Shown piece by piece: positions 2,614 to 57,041 of a stretch of 64,000 bases of DNA. Each line of letters begins with the position of its first letter. Within the stretch, counting starts at the first letter, position 1. Source of the DNA: a virus. Taxonomy: Duplodnaviria; Caudoviricetes. Location of the stretch: IMG/VR virus record IMGVR_UViG_3300038345_000144; one strand, 5' to 3'. Under the pieces are notes generated by a model. It was not told the DNA's origin and did no database searches. It saw only the letters and a program-made list of their open reading frames with translations. Made by a program: the position numbers and the translations under genes.

Positions 2614-3702
2614 TTAAAAGTATTGCATCGCTCCAGCAAACATCTGGGTCTCGATGATTTCATTACCAATTCCAACAAATCCTCTGCACTTAATTTCAGG
2701 TCTGCAAAGGTTGGAAATATCTTTCTCAAACATAAGAGTTGATGCACCGTCATCAAAACCACCCATCAAAATACCCATCTGGATGTTATTCTTCAAATCC
2801 GTACTGATTGTAGAACCAGAAGGTCTGATACATCCGAGTACCAAATGAATACCCGAAGCACGACCCAAACGAGCAAGTGAACCTAATGCAGTCTTAATGG
2901 TATCAACAGCCTTATAATCATCGTTATCCATAAGCAAAGACATCTCATCTACCATAAAGATAATTGTCTTCGGCTGGAAAATTCCATCAACTTTCTTAAT
3001 ATCCTTATCCTTAAAAGGAACACCATTAACCGTAACGCCCTTGAATTTTCCGTCTTTCAAACCGTTAGCCAATTCTTCAATAGTCATAATGGTTTCCCTC
3101 TTGCCGTCGGGATAAAGGGTAAGGTAGTAAGCGTACTTCCTGTCGTCAGTATCAATGTCATACTTAACAGGGAGCAAATTATCAAACTGCAATCTGCCAA
3201 CAGGTGTATCATAATAATCTACCAACACACCTCTATCGCAATTACTGTTACTGACCTTATAGATATTATTAACCCTATTTGCTTCCATCATCCTAAAACG
3301 GGTCATCATAAGTCTCTGGAGAACCTCCAAAGTAGAAGCAACAGCAACAACATCAGTCAATACATCAACAAACCTATGACGGACATCGCCAAAACTTATT
3401 CTGCTCAAGTCAGCACCGACCAACTGGAACTTATTACTAAACTTCGAGATATGGTTAACGATACATCTCTCAACAACATCTCTACCTGAACCTGTGCCTC
3501 CAGCAATTAAAAGTGAAGTGCTGGGGAAAGTGCCATAGTAACCCTTTTCCATCAAATTCTGGTCATTAAGATACCAGCCTACGATTTCTTCTTTACCTTT
3601 AGCATTTAATGTTACTCCCAACGGAACATAAGACCAAGCCTGGTCCTGATTGGGAAACAATAATGCTTCTTTAGTTAAGGTCTTCTTCTTATCTTTGCTC
3701 AT
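2614..3702 (-). CDS. FtsK/SpoIIIE-like P-loop ATPase with degenerate Walker A
   Basis: VPLG..., LLIAGGTGSGR (Walker A with K>R), IIFMVDE (Walker B), LARLGRASGIHLVLG..RP. Confidence 0.8.
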   Translation of the reverse strand: MSKDKKKTLTKEALLFPNQDQAWSYVPLGVTLNAKGKEEIVGWYLNDQNLMEKGYYGTFPSTSLLIAGGTGSGRDVVERCIVNHISKFSNKFQLVGADLSRISFGDVRHRFVDVLTDVVAVASTLEVLQRLMMTRFRMMEANRVNNIYKVSNSNCDRGVLVDYYDTPVGRLQFDNLLPVKYDIDTDDRKYAYYLTLYPDGKRETIMTIEELANGLKDGKFKGVTVNGVPFKDKDIKKVDGIFQPKTIIFMVDEMSLLMDNDDYKAVDTIKTALGSLARLGRASGIHLVLGCIRPSGSTISTDLKNNIQMGILMGGFDDGASTLMFEKDISNLCRPEIKCRGFVGIGNEIIETQMFAGAMQYF

Positions 3703-14733: not shown

Positions 14734-15426
14734 TCAACAACAGTCCCAATTATAAAGAATGTCGGAAAAGTCCAGATTTGCCAGTTTCTCACTATTGATG
14801 AAGAAATTAGCCACGCCACTATCTCCCCACATCAAATACTTATTAGTATCTAACTGGAACAGCAAGCGGTCATATTTCTGGCTCACACCATTATCTCTGG
14901 GGTCATACTGGGTAAAATAGGGATAGCCAAGCAGTTTGCAACCACTACCGTCAAATGCCTCCCAAATCTCGTCCACCATATCATCATCATAGTCTTCAAA
15001 GCGATAATCGGCGGCGGTCATATATTCCTCTGATAATGCAAAGGTCATACCAATATTTTCCTGATATAACGGTGTATTTTCAGCAGGATGATATACAGAA
15101 TATCCGTCGTCCTCAATATTTTCGTGGTAAACTACTTCAAAGCCCTTACAGTCAGCAAATAATCCATAACAGTCGTCATCCAGTACAAAGAATTGCAAAA
15201 GTCCTGTCTTTGGAAAAATATCATTAGCAGGCAGTTCGGAGAAGTTAATCTGGGCTAAAAATACAAATCCCTCAAGCCCTTTTTCGTCTTTCCAGTAGTA
15301 ATTTCCACCTATTTTACTATTTTTATAACCTACTTCTTCTCCTGTAAAGTCAATTCTAAATACAGGCAGTTTCGGCAACTTCGCTTTTAATTCATCTACG
15401 GTCATTTTTTGTAACTCCTTATTCAA
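14734..15426 (-). CDS. YwqG/DUF1963-family protein
   Basis: SKIGG..Y; FLAQINFSELP; GLLQFF; KLLGYPYFTQ.DPR; LLFQLD; MWGDSGVANFFI...L...DFS..LYNWDC. Confidence 0.85.
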   Translation of the reverse strand: MNKELQKMTVDELKAKLPKLPVFRIDFTGEEVGYKNSKIGGNYYWKDEKGLEGFVFLAQINFSELPANDIFPKTGLLQFFVLDDDCYGLFADCKGFEVVYHENIEDDGYSVYHPAENTPLYQENIGMTFALSEEYMTAADYRFEDYDDDMVDEIWEAFDGSGCKLLGYPYFTQYDPRDNGVSQKYDRLLFQLDTNKYLMWGDSGVANFFINSEKLANLDFSDILYNWDCC

Positions 15427-46190: not shown

Positions 46191-46844
46191 CTAAATTTCC
46201 TCCAATTTTGTTATAAGTATAAGCCTATCTGTTCCTTCGCCTATGCAAGTGGATAATATCAAGTATCTTCCATCTGCAAGGTCATATTTCGCTTTTAAGA
46301 ATTCTAAATTATGTTTTACATAAAGGTTATCGTAAGCACTGATTTTATCAGTAAATAGTGGTGTGATACTGTAAGTTTTGTTTTCTGTTATAAAAGTTCC
46401 TGTCTGATGAGTTGATAGATAATTTTCATCCATAAAGTCATCAAGATTTCCAAACATTAGCCCGCCTGTCATATGGTGTCCGTAGATAACGATATAATCA
46501 TCATCTAAAGTGGCATCAGCGTCTATATAGAGCGAGCCTGTTAAACTACTGTTTCCATATAAATCTCTATTCAAGTAATTATATGTATCAGTGGCTTGTA
46601 GTACAGGGTAATCAATATTGGTGTTATCTATTGTTAGCCACCCTACTACATCAGGGTTGATTTGTTTTAGTTTTTCCAGAGAGAACTCTTCCTCGGCTAC
46701 TGGCTTGACCTCTGAATAAGTCTCGGCTTTTGCTCGCTTTTGGATTGTTGCACTGTCATACAAGAAAAACAGCATTATGGTTACAACAACCGCACAAAAG
46801 AGTTCAATGAGTGTAGTTACTACGAAATTTAACTTCTTCATCAT
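46191..46844 (-). CDS. srtB: class B sortase
   Basis: N-terminal TM; NPDVVGWL.I..T.IDYPVLQ; IYGHHM..G.MFG.L; LSTC...R. Confidence 0.9.
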   Translation of the reverse strand: MMKKLNFVVTTLIELFCAVVVTIMLFFLYDSATIQKRAKAETYSEVKPVAEEEFSLEKLKQINPDVVGWLTIDNTNIDYPVLQATDTYNYLNRDLYGNSSLTGSLYIDADATLDDDYIVIYGHHMTGGLMFGNLDDFMDENYLSTHQTGTFITENKTYSITPLFTDKISAYDNLYVKHNLEFLKAKYDLADGRYLILSTCIGEGTDRLILITKLEEI

Positions 46845-47347
46845 AGTCCAAAGCGTCTCACATCAAGTATTACTACACCAACTATCTGACTTTTATCAAT
46901 AACTCCGAAATCTCGGCTGTCCGTATGAAACTCTCGGTTATCACACAAAACATAGTATTGATTTTCTCCTAAAGTAACCTTGTAGTCGCTATTGGAGTTG
47001 TCAGAAGTATAAATATTATCTTCATACACCAAATAGTTATTCTGGAAAACACTACCACTCTGACTTACATAAATCTCGTTATTTGGGGTTCCTACGAGTC
47101 GTCCGATGTATAATTCACCGTTGTATTTATAAACAACCACATCTCGTAAGGTAAAATCCGAGTTAATTCTCGAATAAACTACGGTGTCGTGAAACTTAAT
47201 GTTTGGCGACATACTATCGGAGTCCTGCGTAGTTACACCAATAACGAAAGTAAAGGTTATAATCAGCATTAGTAGAAAAACACCAAGTTTTGCTACTATC
47301 TCAACACCAGTTGAGTGCTTTTTTGTAAATTCCTTTATCTTATTCAC
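46841..47347 (-). CDS. signal peptidase I-like pilus chaperone (SipA/LepA type)
   Basis: SMSP, DVVVY, YIGRLVG (catalytic K replaced by G), DNR...DSR.FG. Confidence 0.8.
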   Translation of the reverse strand: MNKIKEFTKKHSTGVEIVAKLGVFLLMLIITFTFVIGVTTQDSDSMSPNIKFHDTVVYSRINSDFTLRDVVVYKYNGELYIGRLVGTPNNEIYVSQSGSVFQNNYLVYEDNIYTSDNSNSDYKVTLGENQYYVLCDNREFHTDSRDFGVIDKSQIVGVVILDVRRFGL

Positions 47348-47376
47348 TTAACTTCCCTACCCATCTTAATTAGTTA

Positions 47377-48681
47377 TTATTGTTCGTCTTTCTTAACCTT
47401 AATCTTTCTAATAACGACTAAAGCACCGCCCATAAGACCAGCCAAAGCGATGAAAGGTAATACTCTCATCAAGAAACCTGTTGTAGATGGAGCGTTTGCC
47501 GTATTATAGAACTCTAATAAGAAACCCCTATTAGTAACTTCTTTAGACACATCCGTTAGAGAGTTCCTTGAAAGATAGTCTGAAACTGGCTTTCTTGTTA
47601 CACCAAGTTGACCATTAGGCTGTAATACCTCATCTGTGAAAGAGTCATCAGATGTTGTTAATGTGTAAGTCAACTTTGTATTATTTGTCTCGATTACAGA
47701 TAAAGATACATAAGGAGCAATACCGTAAATATAGCAACTTTTATCATCTGCCAAGCCAACAGCATAAGATTTGCTTGCTTCTGCTAACTGTCCCTCAACA
47801 GTACCAGCGAAAACGATGCCCTCGTAAGGAACCTCCTCTGCACCAGGAGCCGTATTTACACGCTCATCTCTTAAAGTGATGGTGAACGGGAATGGGTGAG
47901 TAGTATCTGCCATATTACCGTCAATCTGCTTTGTAATAATAACATTATAAGTTTCATAACGGTCAACAGAATTATCATCACCTACGCTGTATGTATAAAC
48001 ATCGTCAGCAGTTCCATCTTCGCCATCTTGACCAGCAGTATGAGTCTCGATAACATCTCCACCAATGACATAGCCTGGTGTTTTCTTGGTATCTGCAACT
48101 ACGACAGGCGGGATTTCATCAAGGAGTACATAACCACTGATTTCTAACTTACCACTTGTGCTATTTCTTACTACATAAACATCAAGTTCTCTTGTAGTGT
48201 CAAAATCAGCACTTCTCATAATACCTGCTCTATACAAGTTTTCTGTTGGGGTTACATCGGTAATTGTGTAACGATAGATACCAGGATTTTCAAACTTATC
48301 CAAATCTACCGTAAGTTCGATATTTTTAACCAACTGCTTGTTCAAAGCCGTACCCTCTGACTCTACTAATTCAGGAGTAAAAACAAGTTCAACTCCCTCG
48401 GTAAGACCACCTTCAGGACCAGCCAAAACTGGAGCCGAGATATTAGCGGAGTCTGTTACTGCACCAAGATTTGTTGATGGTGCGATGCTGAATATATAAG
48501 TAATTTCGGGTGAATAAGACTTATCATATCCAGTATTTTGAATAATTATTCCTTTCGGAATACTGATTGTGGTGTCGGAGGTATTCGATATACCATCTTC
48601 ACCGATTGTTGCCGCAAATGTAGGTACTGCCATTATCCCTACGGTGAGCAACGCAACTAAAACCTTTGCGATTTTCTTCAT
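47377..48681 (-). CDS. pilin-like sortase substrate (probable backbone pilin)
   Basis: signal peptide; F..PGIYRY.IT; ITKQI.GNMAD....F.FTI; NAPSTTG + TM + basic tail. Confidence 0.75.
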   Translation of the reverse strand: MKKIAKVLVALLTVGIMAVPTFAATIGEDGISNTSDTTISIPKGIIIQNTGYDKSYSPEITYIFSIAPSTNLGAVTDSANISAPVLAGPEGGLTEGVELVFTPELVESEGTALNKQLVKNIELTVDLDKFENPGIYRYTITDVTPTENLYRAGIMRSADFDTTRELDVYVVRNSTSGKLEISGYVLLDEIPPVVVADTKKTPGYVIGGDVIETHTAGQDGEDGTADDVYTYSVGDDNSVDRYETYNVIITKQIDGNMADTTHPFPFTITLRDERVNTAPGAEEVPYEGIVFAGTVEGQLAEASKSYAVGLADDKSCYIYGIAPYVSLSVIETNNTKLTYTLTTSDDSFTDEVLQPNGQLGVTRKPVSDYLSRNSLTDVSKEVTNRGFLLEFYNTANAPSTTGFLMRVLPFIALAGLMGGALVVIRKIKVKKDEQ

Positions 48682-50015
48682 TTGTTCGTGTTTCCTTTCT
48701 TCTTTTTAACAACTATTATTGTTGCAGTTAAGCCAGTGATACCAACCAGTGCTATTCCTGCAAGAATAAACAAGTTAATATTGTCACCTGTTTTAGGTGA
48801 AGGCGGGAAGATAATCAAAGGGTTGTCTTTAACTGTGATAGGCACTAAAATACTACTGCCCTCATAGGAAACGCCCTCTGCATCTGGAGTTATATAGAAT
48901 TTATCGGGATTGATTTCATATCCAGCAGGAGCCTTTGTTTCTTGAATATAATACTCTCTGCCGTCAATAGGAACTGTAAACTCTAAATTACCGTTGGCAT
49001 CGGTAAGTCCAACACAAGGATTGCCGTTAATATCGTCTACAATGTTACCATCAGTATCATAAAGGGTAAATTCTGCACCCTTGAGGTAATACTTAATGTT
49101 ACCAGAAGAAACTTTGGCAATCTTAACATTAAAAGAAGTATAAGCAACAGGACTGCTCATCATAGTTACTGTATAAATATTATCACCGTCTTGTTTTGCC
49201 CAAGAGCCAGTATTTCCGTGTTCAGCAACTTCGTCCTTTACTACTGAATAGCCCTTATCTAAAAGTCCTTGTAAAGTAACCTCATACATACCATAAGCGT
49301 CAGAACCACTTGTAGCGTTAACAGGGTCCATAAGGAGCATAGGCTCATTGAAACGAGCAACGCCCTTAACTACTGTTGTATTAGTCTTTTCAACTACTAC
49401 GGGTTCATCAAAGGTATAAGCCAGAGGCTCAAGAACAACAGGGTCATTATCTACTACTGTTTGTCCGAAAGGTTCGTGGCTTTCTGTAAACACAATGTCA
49501 TCAGCAATTTGTGTTCCATCGTTGTCTACAAACCTAAAAATAATATTACTATTAACAATCGCTGGTACATAAACAAATCCAGTATCTTTTACACCACTGG
49601 CGGTATAGAAGTGATAACTGGAAAGAACTAATTGACCATTATCATATAACACAGTAACATCGAGAAGTCTGTATTCGTTCTGTGATGTATTGGTCAAGCG
49701 GTATCTGTAAGTACCTGCGTGGTCAAAAGGTGTAACATCAAAGGACATTGTGATGGGCTTTGTCTGCTTTTTACCGTCTGACAAAGAAAAGTCGAGAGTT
49801 TCAGTCTGTAATACGACACCACCCTCAACACCTTTTTCAATTCCATCAATTCCTTCGGGTTCTTCTGCTTCGAGAGTATAAGAGAAACTGCGTGAAGTTA
49901 TGGAAGTTCCCTCGAAACTATTAGTTTGACTAATAGTTATACTGTCGTCTGCATATACTACACCTCCGAAAAGCATTACACATACACATAATAAGGCTAT
50001 CACGGCTTTTCGCAT
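48678..50015 (-). CDS. ancillary pilin with SpaA/Cna-B-like domain
   Basis: signal peptide; F.HAGTYRY; LKGAEFTLY...TDANG...YYIQETKAPAGY; SPKTGD + TM + KKKK. Confidence 0.8.
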   Translation of the reverse strand: MRKAVIALLCVCVMLFGGVVYADDSITISQTNSFEGTSITSRSFSYTLEAEEPEGIDGIEKGVEGGVVLQTETLDFSLSDGKKQTKPITMSFDVTPFDHAGTYRYRLTNTSQNEYRLLDVTVLYDNGQLVLSSYHFYTASGVKDTGFVYVPAIVNSNIIFRFVDNDGTQIADDIVFTESHEPFGQTVVDNDPVVLEPLAYTFDEPVVVEKTNTTVVKGVARFNEPMLLMDPVNATSGSDAYGMYEVTLQGLLDKGYSVVKDEVAEHGNTGSWAKQDGDNIYTVTMMSSPVAYTSFNVKIAKVSSGNIKYYLKGAEFTLYDTDGNIVDDINGNPCVGLTDANGNLEFTVPIDGREYYIQETKAPAGYEINPDKFYITPDAEGVSYEGSSILVPITVKDNPLIIFPPSPKTGDNINLFILAGIALVGITGLTATIIVVKKKKGNTNK

Positions 50016-55693: not shown

Positions 55694-56257
55694 TTAAGGC
55701 AACCATTCATAAAGTACGCCACAATCACCAACATACTTGCCCTCTCTGGTCTCAACTTGGAACTTAATTTTCGTATGAGTGTCATTAGGGTCAATGTAAT
55801 ACCTACCATTATAGTAGATTACACCTGTAAGGGCTGTGGAGTCTTCTCTGCCATCATAAGCAGGAATAATGAGCCTAATATCCTTATTGAGTTCTTCAAG
55901 ATAATCAGGAACTACCATTGTTTCCATAAACTCAACGAATTTCTGGCACTTACCAAGCATAGTAAGTACATCGTCAAGGTTCATTTCGCTTGTCTTCTTA
56001 CCGTCAATCTCACCCTCATAGAAGGTAGCAATACTTACCGAGAAGTCCTCGCAATAATCGTTAATCCCCAGCCTGATATTGATGTTATACTCAACATCAT
56101 CTATGGTTTTAACGAACTTATAGGTTTTTGATGTTAAAGGAAGAAGATTTCTATGAATTGAGTCGTCTATAAAGTCCTTTTCAACTCTGGGGTGAGGTGA
56201 GTTATCAAAACAACTCTCATAGATGTTTGATTTTACTGAAAAAGTATCGTACAGCAT
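55694..56257 (-). CDS. hypothetical protein
   Basis: 187-aa ORF, AGGAGG SD. Confidence 0.75.
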   Translation of the reverse strand: MLYDTFSVKSNIYESCFDNSPHPRVEKDFIDDSIHRNLLPLTSKTYKFVKTIDDVEYNINIRLGINDYCEDFSVSIATFYEGEIDGKKTSEMNLDDVLTMLGKCQKFVEFMETMVVPDYLEELNKDIRLIIPAYDGREDSTALTGVIYYNGRYYIDPNDTHTKIKFQVETREGKYVGDCGVLYEWLP

Positions 56258-56281: not shown

Positions 56282-56319
56282 AGTTTCTTATTATTAGCAT
56301 AGAAACTGAATAGTGTCAA
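56282..56319 (-). promoter_or_regulatory. SigA-type promoter overlapping the last CRISPR-like repeat, with operator-like inverted repeat
   Basis: TTGACA-17 nt-TAATAAT preceded by TG; AGTTTCT...AGAAACT around the -10. Confidence 0.6.
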
Positions 56320-56691
56320 CCTCCATAACTGGAGAACAGAACTGGAAACATCCAATTTTCCACAAACATTTTCTCCAAGAAAAACCCCCATTCACACGGG
56401 GAAGATACGGTAGATTTCATACTGGAAGGTGTAAACAATGAATAACCTCCGCAGATACGGAGAATTCTTGAATATCCCGCAAAATAATGGTACTCGATTG
56501 ATAAACCCCCAACAAGTGAGGAAGGTGTCCAGCGGTTTTAGAGTCGGTTGCTCTACCTGAAAAACCCCAGCAATAAGGGAAAGTGTGATGTCAGCATCTT
56601 GACCGAACAACCCCCAAAAAATGAGGAAAGCAGTCTAACCGTGTCCGAGCCTGGTGTACTACCTGATAAACCTCCGAGAAATCGGAGAAGT
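56314..56691 (-). CRISPR. degenerate type I-E-like CRISPR array, 7 repeats and 6 spacers, no cas genes
   Basis: repeats at 56665, 56605, 56559, 56500, 56440, 56379, 56314 (periods 60,46,59,60,61,65); consensus NYTTCYYC-N6/10-GGRGGTTNWTC; spacers 33,20,33,33,34,~40 nt. Confidence 0.7.
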
Positions 56692-56702
56692 TAATTGATT
56701 TT

Positions 56703-57041
56703 TTAATCGTCTACGAGCATTTCCCAAGCCCTGTCGTCTTCTACTACCTTCTGGACCAAAATAAATGCTTTGAGAGCGTCAAACCAAGTAGAATTAACAA
56801 AGTTCTCGGCTTTACCCATAACCCAAACACCTTGATAGGTTAAATTGCAGGTAAAATCATAGCCGTCAACTACTAACGGAACTTCATCAGTGTCCCAACC
56901 GTTTGCTTCTGCTGTCTTGTAGTCAAAGTGCTCGTCTTCTTTGACATACTGGGCAAATGTCTTATAGGTCATCAATAACTCATAGTTATAACCAGAGTCA
57001 TCACAAACCTCAATAATATCGTTATAAGGAATATAAGCCAT
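56703..57041 (-). CDS. acidic hypothetical protein directly upstream of the array
   Basis: 112-aa ORF, TAATG-coupled. Confidence 0.75.
   Translation of the reverse strand: MAYIPYNDIIEVCDDSGYNYELLMTYKTFAQYVKEDEHFDYKTAEANGWDTDEVPLVVDGYDFTCNLTYQGVWVMGKAENFVNSTWFDALKAFILVQKVVEDDRAWEMLVDD

Follow-up and report, generated by a model that had tools for sequence, protein, structure and literature searches.

The 64,000-nucleotide (nt) stretch analysed here (IMG/VR record IMGVR_UViG_3300038345_000144), which we call the window, is part of a rumen mobile element of 406,557 nt. At 56314-56691, on the minus strand, it contains seven consecutive hairpin units arranged like a CRISPR array. The array occupies most of a 445-nt gap between two open reading frames (ORFs), 56703-57041 and 55694-56257, and all genes of the window are encoded on the same strand as the array. 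A preliminary description, made from the letters of the window alone, had placed seven diverged repeats of type I-E character at this site, 12 nt after a stop codon and without a leader. All seven units are present there, none of them identical to another, as had been noted, and the first repeat begins 11 nt, not 12, past the TAA stop of ORF 56703-57041. The leaderless state was borne out: a promoter scan detected no promoter-like site upstream of Repeat 1 on the minus strand, and thus no leader with its own promoter.

Most of the units share a common build. A T-rich flank of about 3 nt is followed by a stem of up to 7 bp with a tetraloop, and the unit ends in a tail, GTTnnTC (or TTnnTC when counted from behind the last G), hereafter called the handle. 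The pair that closes the stem is U-G in most of the seven units. The exceptions concern Repeat 3, whose stem has only ~4 pairs, and Repeats 2 and 4, which each carry one internal mismatch. The repeats are ~27 nt long and are separated by spacers of approximately 33, 20, 33, 33, 34 and 41 nt (the last had been put at ~40); measured from handle end to handle end, the units follow one another at 60, 46, 59, 60, 61 and 65 nt, which corresponds to a period of roughly 60 nt. The I-E-like geometry of the preliminary description, with most spacers at 33-34 nt, therefore holds. At the end of the array, the handle position of Repeat 7 is taken by TTGACA, the -35 box of the promoter of the next gene.

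Hairpin conservation at the array

Searches that rely on repeat identity did not detect the array, as had been anticipated: Tandem Repeats Finder returned nothing at a period near 60 in it. Rfam and tRNA scans of the window gave no matches. A motif scan of both strands of the 64 kb for a hairpin followed by GGRGGTT identified this locus only. A heuristic array detector, which reported zero arrays in five shuffled windows, proved too strict and was replaced by a covariance model (R1), as the preliminary description had suggested building. With model R1, the seven units all score between E = 1.5e-7 and E = 0.011, and the next-best match in the window reaches only E = 2; the model also recovers arrays on which it was not trained (see below).

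To describe the repeat family, 39 distinct units from the window array, its haplotypes and one relative were aligned (alignment A1). The mean column identity of these units is 66%. Their 7-bp helix is paired in 85.7% of the cells, compared to 79.3% in shuffled alignments, none of which (0/500) reached the observed value, and to 46-64% in slid controls. Two pairs change on both sides: pair 9-22 occurs as UA (22 units), CG (8) and UG (7), and pair 13-18 as AU (10), UA (10), UG (5) and CG (2). Individual repeats behave in the same manner, since the stem of Repeat 1 is unchanged in seven of seven haplotypes while its loop varies, and Repeat 6 reads TCTCCGT/ACGGGGG in relatives with pairing kept. 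The claims that the stems covary and that selection acts on hairpin and handle, not on repeat identity, were thus upheld. Many of the pairs are U-G, which would read as C-A mismatches in a transcript of the opposite strand. Only minus-strand, gene-sense RNA can therefore form the hairpins, in the orientation proposed at the outset. The fold of the whole region is no more stable than that of shuffles (z = -0.75), which places the signal in local hairpins rather than in a global structure. The repeats are most likely kept by structure, as hairpin shapes, and not by sequence, so that ordinary repeat finders would miss the array.

Type I-E cas genes and related arrays

The window holds no homologue of the six type I-E interference proteins, as judged by tblastn with the Cas proteins of the element (models for cas1 and cas2 were not used). 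The description of the array as Cas-less is therefore right for the window; it is wrong for the genome. The 187-aa protein encoded downstream of the array is identical to a protein (P0056) recorded on a JGI/Logan contig of 406,557 nt, and a contig of equal length, from the same sources, is on record for a Cas7 protein (P0177). Run SRR1725612 yields both the contigs of the window and L084, the Logan copy of the contig with P0177. In a word index, the Cas7 proteins of two relatives, G001 and L048, share short words with a place 77 kb before the start of the window in this genome, which puts the cas operon ~133 kb from the array on the same element. Genes for Cse1, Cse2, Cas7, Cas5, Cas6e and Cas3 stand at L084:7894-14893; in Cas3 both HD and helicase domains are recognised, and every match exceeds Pfam's curated cut-offs. 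No cas1 or cas2 gene was found within 10 kb of this operon. The profile of Cas6e matches the solved Cse3/CasE structures of Thermobifida, Thermus and E. coli, and its clade shows no variation in the glycine-rich (G-rich) RNA-binding loop or in a histidine at position 29.

The relatives connect arrays of this kind directly with cas genes. G001 is IMG/VR contig 3300021431_002946 (467 kb, with terminal repeats); it encodes the same six proteins and carries, between cas6e and cas3, five non-identical hairpin units with a GTTTTTC handle and ~33-nt spacers. No Cas1 match was obtained anywhere in its 467 kb, under conditions in which control genomes do match. Model R1 found untrained arrays on both sides of the cas operon of L048, at 3242-3453 and from 13024 to ~13290, as well as several dispersed arrays in G001, and all of its matches sit on the gene-sense strand. 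A second array of the present genome lies ~7.5 kb upstream of the first, just past the end of the window (L090 1-260). A scan of viral contigs for a three-unit pattern returned 44 loci, nearly all of them coding tandem repeats; only L002, which is the array of G001, and L014 were relevant. L014 is an array-like locus without cas genes, and for this reason its subtype cannot be assigned. In a further homologous locus (L056) a run of N covers the array. Judged by the associated proteins and by geometry, the repeat family is of type I-E, though its handle is unlike that of E. coli. The array of the window is most likely part of an adaptation-less I-E system carried by the same ~406-kb element.

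Several features of these loci are recorded here in their own right. The last codons of the 112-aa gene together with Repeat 1 occur twice, ~7.5 kb apart, each copy heading an array (L090:1-48; window 56665-56712), and the Logan contigs of the source run end exactly at the 31-mer that these two copies share. The cas3 gene of G001 (L047:10272-12983) bears an N-terminal Cas2-like domain (PF09707, E = 2e-8); the Cas3 of the present genome has 800 aa and is without it. The gap between cas6e and cas3 (L084:12431-12490) contains two back-to-back hairpins, the second of which ends in GGGG followed by TATAAACA and abuts the start codon of cas3. This end resembles the E. coli I-E handle ATAAACCG, and the two hairpins may represent a cr-like autoregulatory element. 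Directly upstream of cse1, a radical-SAM protein (L084:5858-7771) is split by an intein with a LAGLIDADG domain.

As for the element itself, Pfam searches of the window identified an FtsK/SpoIIIE ATPase (FtsK/TcpA-like), SpaA- and FctA-type pilin domains, a sortase, a signal peptidase and a surface protein of 2339 aa. Apart from the signal peptidase, these are among the features that suggest conjugation. One of the few window proteins with a Pfam family is a 230-aa protein at 14734-15426, which matches DUF1963 (E = 1.6e-46). PHROGs searches with 10 window proteins gave no matches, and megablast and tblastn comparisons of the window with cultured phage and plasmid records returned only distant FtsK matches. 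Homologues of 29 of the 98 window ORFs are present in G001, at 24-69% identity. G001 carries a VirB4-like AAA_10 match (E = 1.5e-37) and has no match to the terminase or HK97-capsid models of Pfam, though IMG/VR lists it as viral; on these grounds we call the elements huge mobile elements, more plasmid-like than phage-like. By its gene content, the element of the window likewise looks closer to a plasmid than to a phage, and it looks conjugative. The runs that carry the region derive from bovine and sheep guts, sampled as metagenomes in 15 studies.

Turnover of units and variation of spacers

Six further versions of the locus were obtained through homologues of the 187-aa gene, yielding seven haplotypes from the assemblies of seven samples. 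The array is present in all seven. The flanking genes vary little (third-codon diversity 0.06-0.075), and the 187-aa proteins of the relatives differ at 9-16 of 187 residues (~91-95% identity). The haplotypes differ by the replacement, gain or loss of whole spacer-plus-hairpin units, with indels of 58-62 nt. Spacer 1 and the hairpin that follows it are swapped in four haplotypes; one haplotype has an extra unit and two lack one unit each, and one keeps spacer 4 in two variant forms. Within a single array, spacers 1 and 3 are related as variants, and paralogous spacers of this sort presumably aim at the same kind of target. Contigs from other runs repeat the same variants, as well as an inversion that affects the last spacer-like segment. 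The inverted stretch, at window 56329-56378 relative to L058, L059 and L085-L088, comprises most of this segment and part of the 5' arm of Repeat 7. An opposite-strand joint at 56329/56377 is found in a contig of run X4, and in an X5 contig, too, the strand changes between pieces at this place. Apart from the inversion, conservation of the segment is high.

Within spacers, substitutions are distributed unevenly. The diversity of spacer 3 is 0.56 at positions 1 mod 6, compared to 0.10 at positions that are neither 1 nor 4 mod 6, and the corresponding values for spacer 4 are 0.47 and 0.04. Counted over the shared spacers, a minimum of 20 changes is required in 40 columns at 1 mod 6, of 9 in 33 at 4 mod 6 and of 12 in 145 elsewhere. 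The excess is supported at P = 9e-6 for 1 mod 6 and at P = 1e-6 for 1 mod 3. If the handle is 7 nt long, positions 1, 7, 13, 19, 25 and 31 correspond to those that, according to established I-E structures, Cascade flips out and leaves unpaired. The 3-nt component of the periodicity suggests that the targets are protein-coding. Whether the pattern is one of 6 nt or of 3 nt, the variation indicates that spacer sequence is under selection. Spacers 2, 5 and 6 hardly vary at all and fall below the third-codon proxy in diversity. Spacer 2 (56585-56604), only 20 nt long, is identical in seven of seven haplotypes and precedes the weakest hairpin, that of Repeat 3; it may have a role other than that of a standard Cascade guide. 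The coordinates of the units and of neighbouring features are collected in Table 1.

Table 1. Features of the array and associated loci (positions refer to the window unless a contig is named)
Feature	Position	Strand	Properties
Repeat 1	56665..56691	-	stem TCTCCGA/TCGGAGG, loop TTTC, handle GTTTATC; model R1 32.9 bits, E = 5e-7
Spacer 1	56632..56664	-	33 nt; paralogue of spacer 3; replaced by an unrelated spacer in 4 haplotypes
Repeat 2	56605..56631	-	stem TTCCTCA/TTGGGGG with one mismatch, handle GTTGTTC; model R1 29.3 bits
Spacer 2	56585..56604	-	short, 20 nt; invariant in 7/7 haplotypes; diversity 0 vs 0.07 at third-codon sites of flanking genes
Repeat 3	56559..56584	-	weak stem of ~4 pairs, handle GTTTTTC; model R1 27.5 bits
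Spacer 3	56526..56558	-	33 nt; hypervariable at positions 1, 7, 13, 19, 25
Repeat 4	56500..56525	-	handle GTTTATC; model R1 30.1 bits
Spacer 4	56467..56499	-	33 nt; in 7/7 haplotypes; three different bases at positions 7 and 13
Repeat 5	56440..56466	-	stem TCTCCGT/GCGGAGG, loop ATCT, handle GTTATTC; model R1 34.5 bits, E = 1.5e-7
Spacer 5	56406..56439	-	34 nt; in 3/7 haplotypes; nearly invariant
Repeat 6	56379..56405	-	stem TCCCCGT/ATGGGGG, loop GTGA, handle GTTTTTC; model R1 28.7 bits
Last spacer-like segment	56338..56378	-	41 nt; mostly inverted relative to the six other haplotypes
Repeat 7 (terminal)	56314..56337	-	stem TCTCCA/TGGAGG; model R1 19.6 bits, E = 0.011
Sigma-70-like promoter	56290..56319	-	TTGACA, 18 nt, AATAAT; 11/12 consensus matches; promoter of gene 55694-56257; identical in all haplotypes
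Upstream 112-aa gene	56703..57041	-	syntenic gene in all relatives
Downstream 187-aa gene	55694..56257	-	anchor used to find homologous arrays
Genes suggestive of conjugation	window 2614-3702 and 46191-50015; G001:C1:212745-213794
cas6e	L084:11849-12430

Proposed function of the array and rival explanations

We consider it probable that the units are fixed guides for the element's own Cascade-Cas3, co-transcribed with the neighbouring genes and evolving by unit exchange instead of acquisition by Cas1-Cas2. For transcription, Cas6e cleavage, interference and the identity of the targets we infer the following course. Lacking a leader, the array would be reached by transcripts that read through from the upstream gene, on the gene-sense (minus) strand; as it starts so close after the stop codon of the 112-aa gene, read-through is the likely source of array RNA. 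The element's Cas6e would recognise the hairpins by their shape (stem of up to 7 bp, usual U-G closing pair, tetraloop) and cut at their 3' base, releasing CRISPR RNAs (crRNAs) of ~60 nt with a 7-nt GUUnnUC 5' handle, a ~33-nt spacer and a 3' hairpin. These crRNAs would be loaded into the element's Cascade (Cse1, Cse2, Cas7, Cas5, Cas6e), and Cas3 would degrade matching DNA; the probable targets are protein-coding genes, either in rival elements or in the host. Without Cas1-Cas2 there would be no templated copying of repeats, so that these would have drifted under selection for structure only, and the array would change through exchange, gain and loss of whole spacer-plus-hairpin units.

A number of observations weigh against this reading. 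No protospacer was found in any search, hence no target and no protospacer-adjacent motif (PAM). The whole array compared with phage and plasmid records gave a single match, at E = 0.4; exact array strings were not found in viral and metagenome contig collections, and a word-index look-up of the array returned only itself. All spacers were compared with the ~1.1 Mb of DNA collected for this analysis, and no targets were detected. Allowing N at every wobble position of spacer 4 (genome, viral and metagenome contigs) or at every sixth position of spacer 5 (genome and viral contigs) produced no matches. Among the runs that carry the region, none is on record as RNA, and three whose RNA labels are guessed or ambiguous contain little of it. 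The excess of changes at 1 mod 6 over 4 mod 6 has only P = 0.09, so that the periodicity may mainly reflect codon wobble in coding targets and not unpaired Cascade positions, and the diversity at the hypervariable sites, ~7 times the third-codon proxy, is not explained by simple drift. Parts of the array itself fit poorly: the stem of Repeat 3 is weak, spacer 2 is too short for normal Cascade, and the last spacer-like segment is both overlong, at 41 nt, and inverted in the window haplotype. Finally, the cas operon is distant and has no array beside it in this genome, the invariant His29 is only putatively the catalytic histidine of Cas6e, and the I-E repeats of E. coli K-12 do not score with model R1.

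Some of these points would also suit hairpins that serve as sites of mRNA processing or stability, at which Cas6e or another RNase cuts polycistronic transcripts and between which the spacers are no guides. Such sites could well be leaderless, lie inside same-strand operons just after stop codons and merge with the promoter of the next gene as the terminal repeat does; the shortness of spacer 2 and the failure to find targets agree with this too. Passive linkers, however, would not be expected to show constraint with a period of 3 or 6 nt, nor hypervariability, and the spacers are held at 33-34 nt, variant copies of one spacer are kept side by side, and the same type of array adjoins cascade and cas3 genes in relatives. 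We therefore regard an mRNA-processing function as unlikely. Equally in line with the lack of targets is a fossil array, built at one time by Cas1-Cas2 and now decaying, its guide function lost: all repeats differ, Repeat 3 is degraded, and cas1 and cas2 were not found (operon ±10 kb; Cas1 in G001). This we judge improbable, since the changes seen in the hairpins preserve pairing and so maintain them, several spacers vary less than the synonymous sites of neighbouring genes, units are actively exchanged and not eroded, and an intact Cascade-Cas3 operon is retained; moreover, the locus is kept in all seven haplotypes from seven samples, in a region that spans 15 studies.

The preliminary description had itself favoured a cassette of Racr-like RNA decoys, or guides that borrow the I-E Cascade of the host. 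In favour of this, repeat-like hairpins stand in a window without homologues of the six interference proteins, and mini-arrays and solitary repeat units are known on mobile elements (PMC11656645). Neither proposal fared well. The element encodes its own complete I-E effector operon, in relatives such arrays of scrambled repeats directly adjoin the cas genes of the same genome, selection acts on the spacers, and no host I-E system with matching repeats is known, which together leave decoys and hijacking guides highly improbable. Where the preliminary description had preferred guides to a coding gene, its choice stood up. A 72-aa ORF at 56392-56610 was rejected as a gene: it is not conserved, it has no PHROG match, and the unit indels of 58-62 nt, which are not multiples of 3, break any frame as units come and go. 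A forward frame does stay open from spacer 2 to Repeat 5 in all haplotypes. Nevertheless, read in the 72-aa frame, the hypervariable sites occupy codon position 1 or 2, and the wobble-consistent frames of spacers 3 and 4 disagree, as these spacers start 59 nt apart. Intrinsic terminators were likewise rejected. Two of the seven units, Repeat 5 among them, were flagged by a terminator-like scan, but the other five have no U-tract and the region as a whole folds no better than shuffles. A series of terminators or attenuators, or a small coding gene, is thus very doubtful as an account of the locus.

Set against canonical I-E arrays, such as CRISPR-I of E. coli K-12 and CRISPR4 of Streptococcus thermophilus, the array that we take to be a set of fixed guides is alike in its repeat (~27-28 nt, with a 6-7 bp stem, a tetraloop and, 3' of the stem, a short conserved segment that is the prospective 5' handle of the crRNA), in its spacers of 32-34 nt and period near 61 nt, and in the presence of a cse1-cse2-cas7-cas5-cas6e-cas3 set in the same genome. 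It is unlike them in that every repeat differs, that there is no leader and no cas1 or cas2 found within 10 kb of the operon, and that the array lies ~133 kb from the cas genes, arrays being scattered among operons. The handle is GUUnnUC, not AUAAACCG, in keeping with the lack of any score for E. coli repeats. CRISPR-associated transposons (CASTs; I-F3, V-K) are element-encoded systems that lack adaptation genes, and their diverged repeats nonetheless yield working guides; the system of the window is probably similar on these points. There, a single atypical repeat pair serves the homing guide, whereas here heterogeneity extends through the entire array and, it appears, to all of the element's arrays.

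Effector-only CRISPR-Cas systems without Cas1, Cas2 and Cas4, with compact arrays, have been described in huge phages (Al-Shayeb et al., bioRxiv 10.1101/572362). These resemble the present system as Cas effectors with short arrays on mobile elements of >200 kb, probably in their lack of adaptation genes, and in their proposed role against competing elements or host genes. Their arrays were found by MinCED and CRISPRDetect, tools that need near-identical repeats, in contrast to the non-identical repeats and dispersed arrays of the plasmid-like element studied here. Plasmid type IV-A systems act in inter-plasmid competition, lack an adaptation module and are carried by large conjugative elements (PMC11656645); carriage by a large element is a shared feature, as probably are the missing adaptation module and guides against rival elements or host genes. 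The present system differs in being I-E with an intact Cas3 nuclease-helicase, not DinG, and type IV arrays have uniform repeats and can borrow the Cas1-Cas2 of the host. Solitary repeat units, mini-arrays, Racr and cr-like RNAs (bioRxiv 10.1101/2023.03.03.530964) similarly provide diverged repeat-like hairpins outside canonical arrays, on mobile elements or in cas loci. They consist of one or two units with no spacer or a partial one, whereas here seven units with full-length selected spacers have a cognate Cas6e in cis. A literature search of incomplete coverage, which is no proof of absence, returned no description of natural arrays made wholly of non-identical, structure-conserved repeats and scattered through a genome.

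A wider proposal, on which we stand evenly between acceptance and doubt, is that a clade of ruminant-gut elements of ~0.4-0.5 Mb runs a hard-wired I-E system. Dozens of guides would be held in small, operon-embedded arrays whose repeats are only shapes recognisable by Cas6e; units would be swapped without Cas1-Cas2, and several variant guides would be kept for each coding target, with the positions left unpaired in Cascade varying freely or faster than neutral. If this is true, arrays with such shape-only repeats would resist loss through recombination and would escape standard CRISPR finders. CRISPR arrays are detected by repeat identity, and if arrays defined only by a hairpin and a 7-nt handle exist, surveys of phages and plasmids undercount guides and the "array-less" cas operons of mobile elements deserve re-examination. 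It would follow as well that Cas6e and Cascade tolerate wide natural variation of the repeat, a property relevant to stable multiplex arrays, and that spacer turnover without Cas1-Cas2 has a natural case. Should the 6-nt pattern of free positions be confirmed, evolution would have left in it a trace of the bases flipped out in Cascade. Since many bovine and sheep gut metagenome runs carry parts of the region, the element appears to be widespread, and its targets may matter for the ecology of mobile elements in the rumen.

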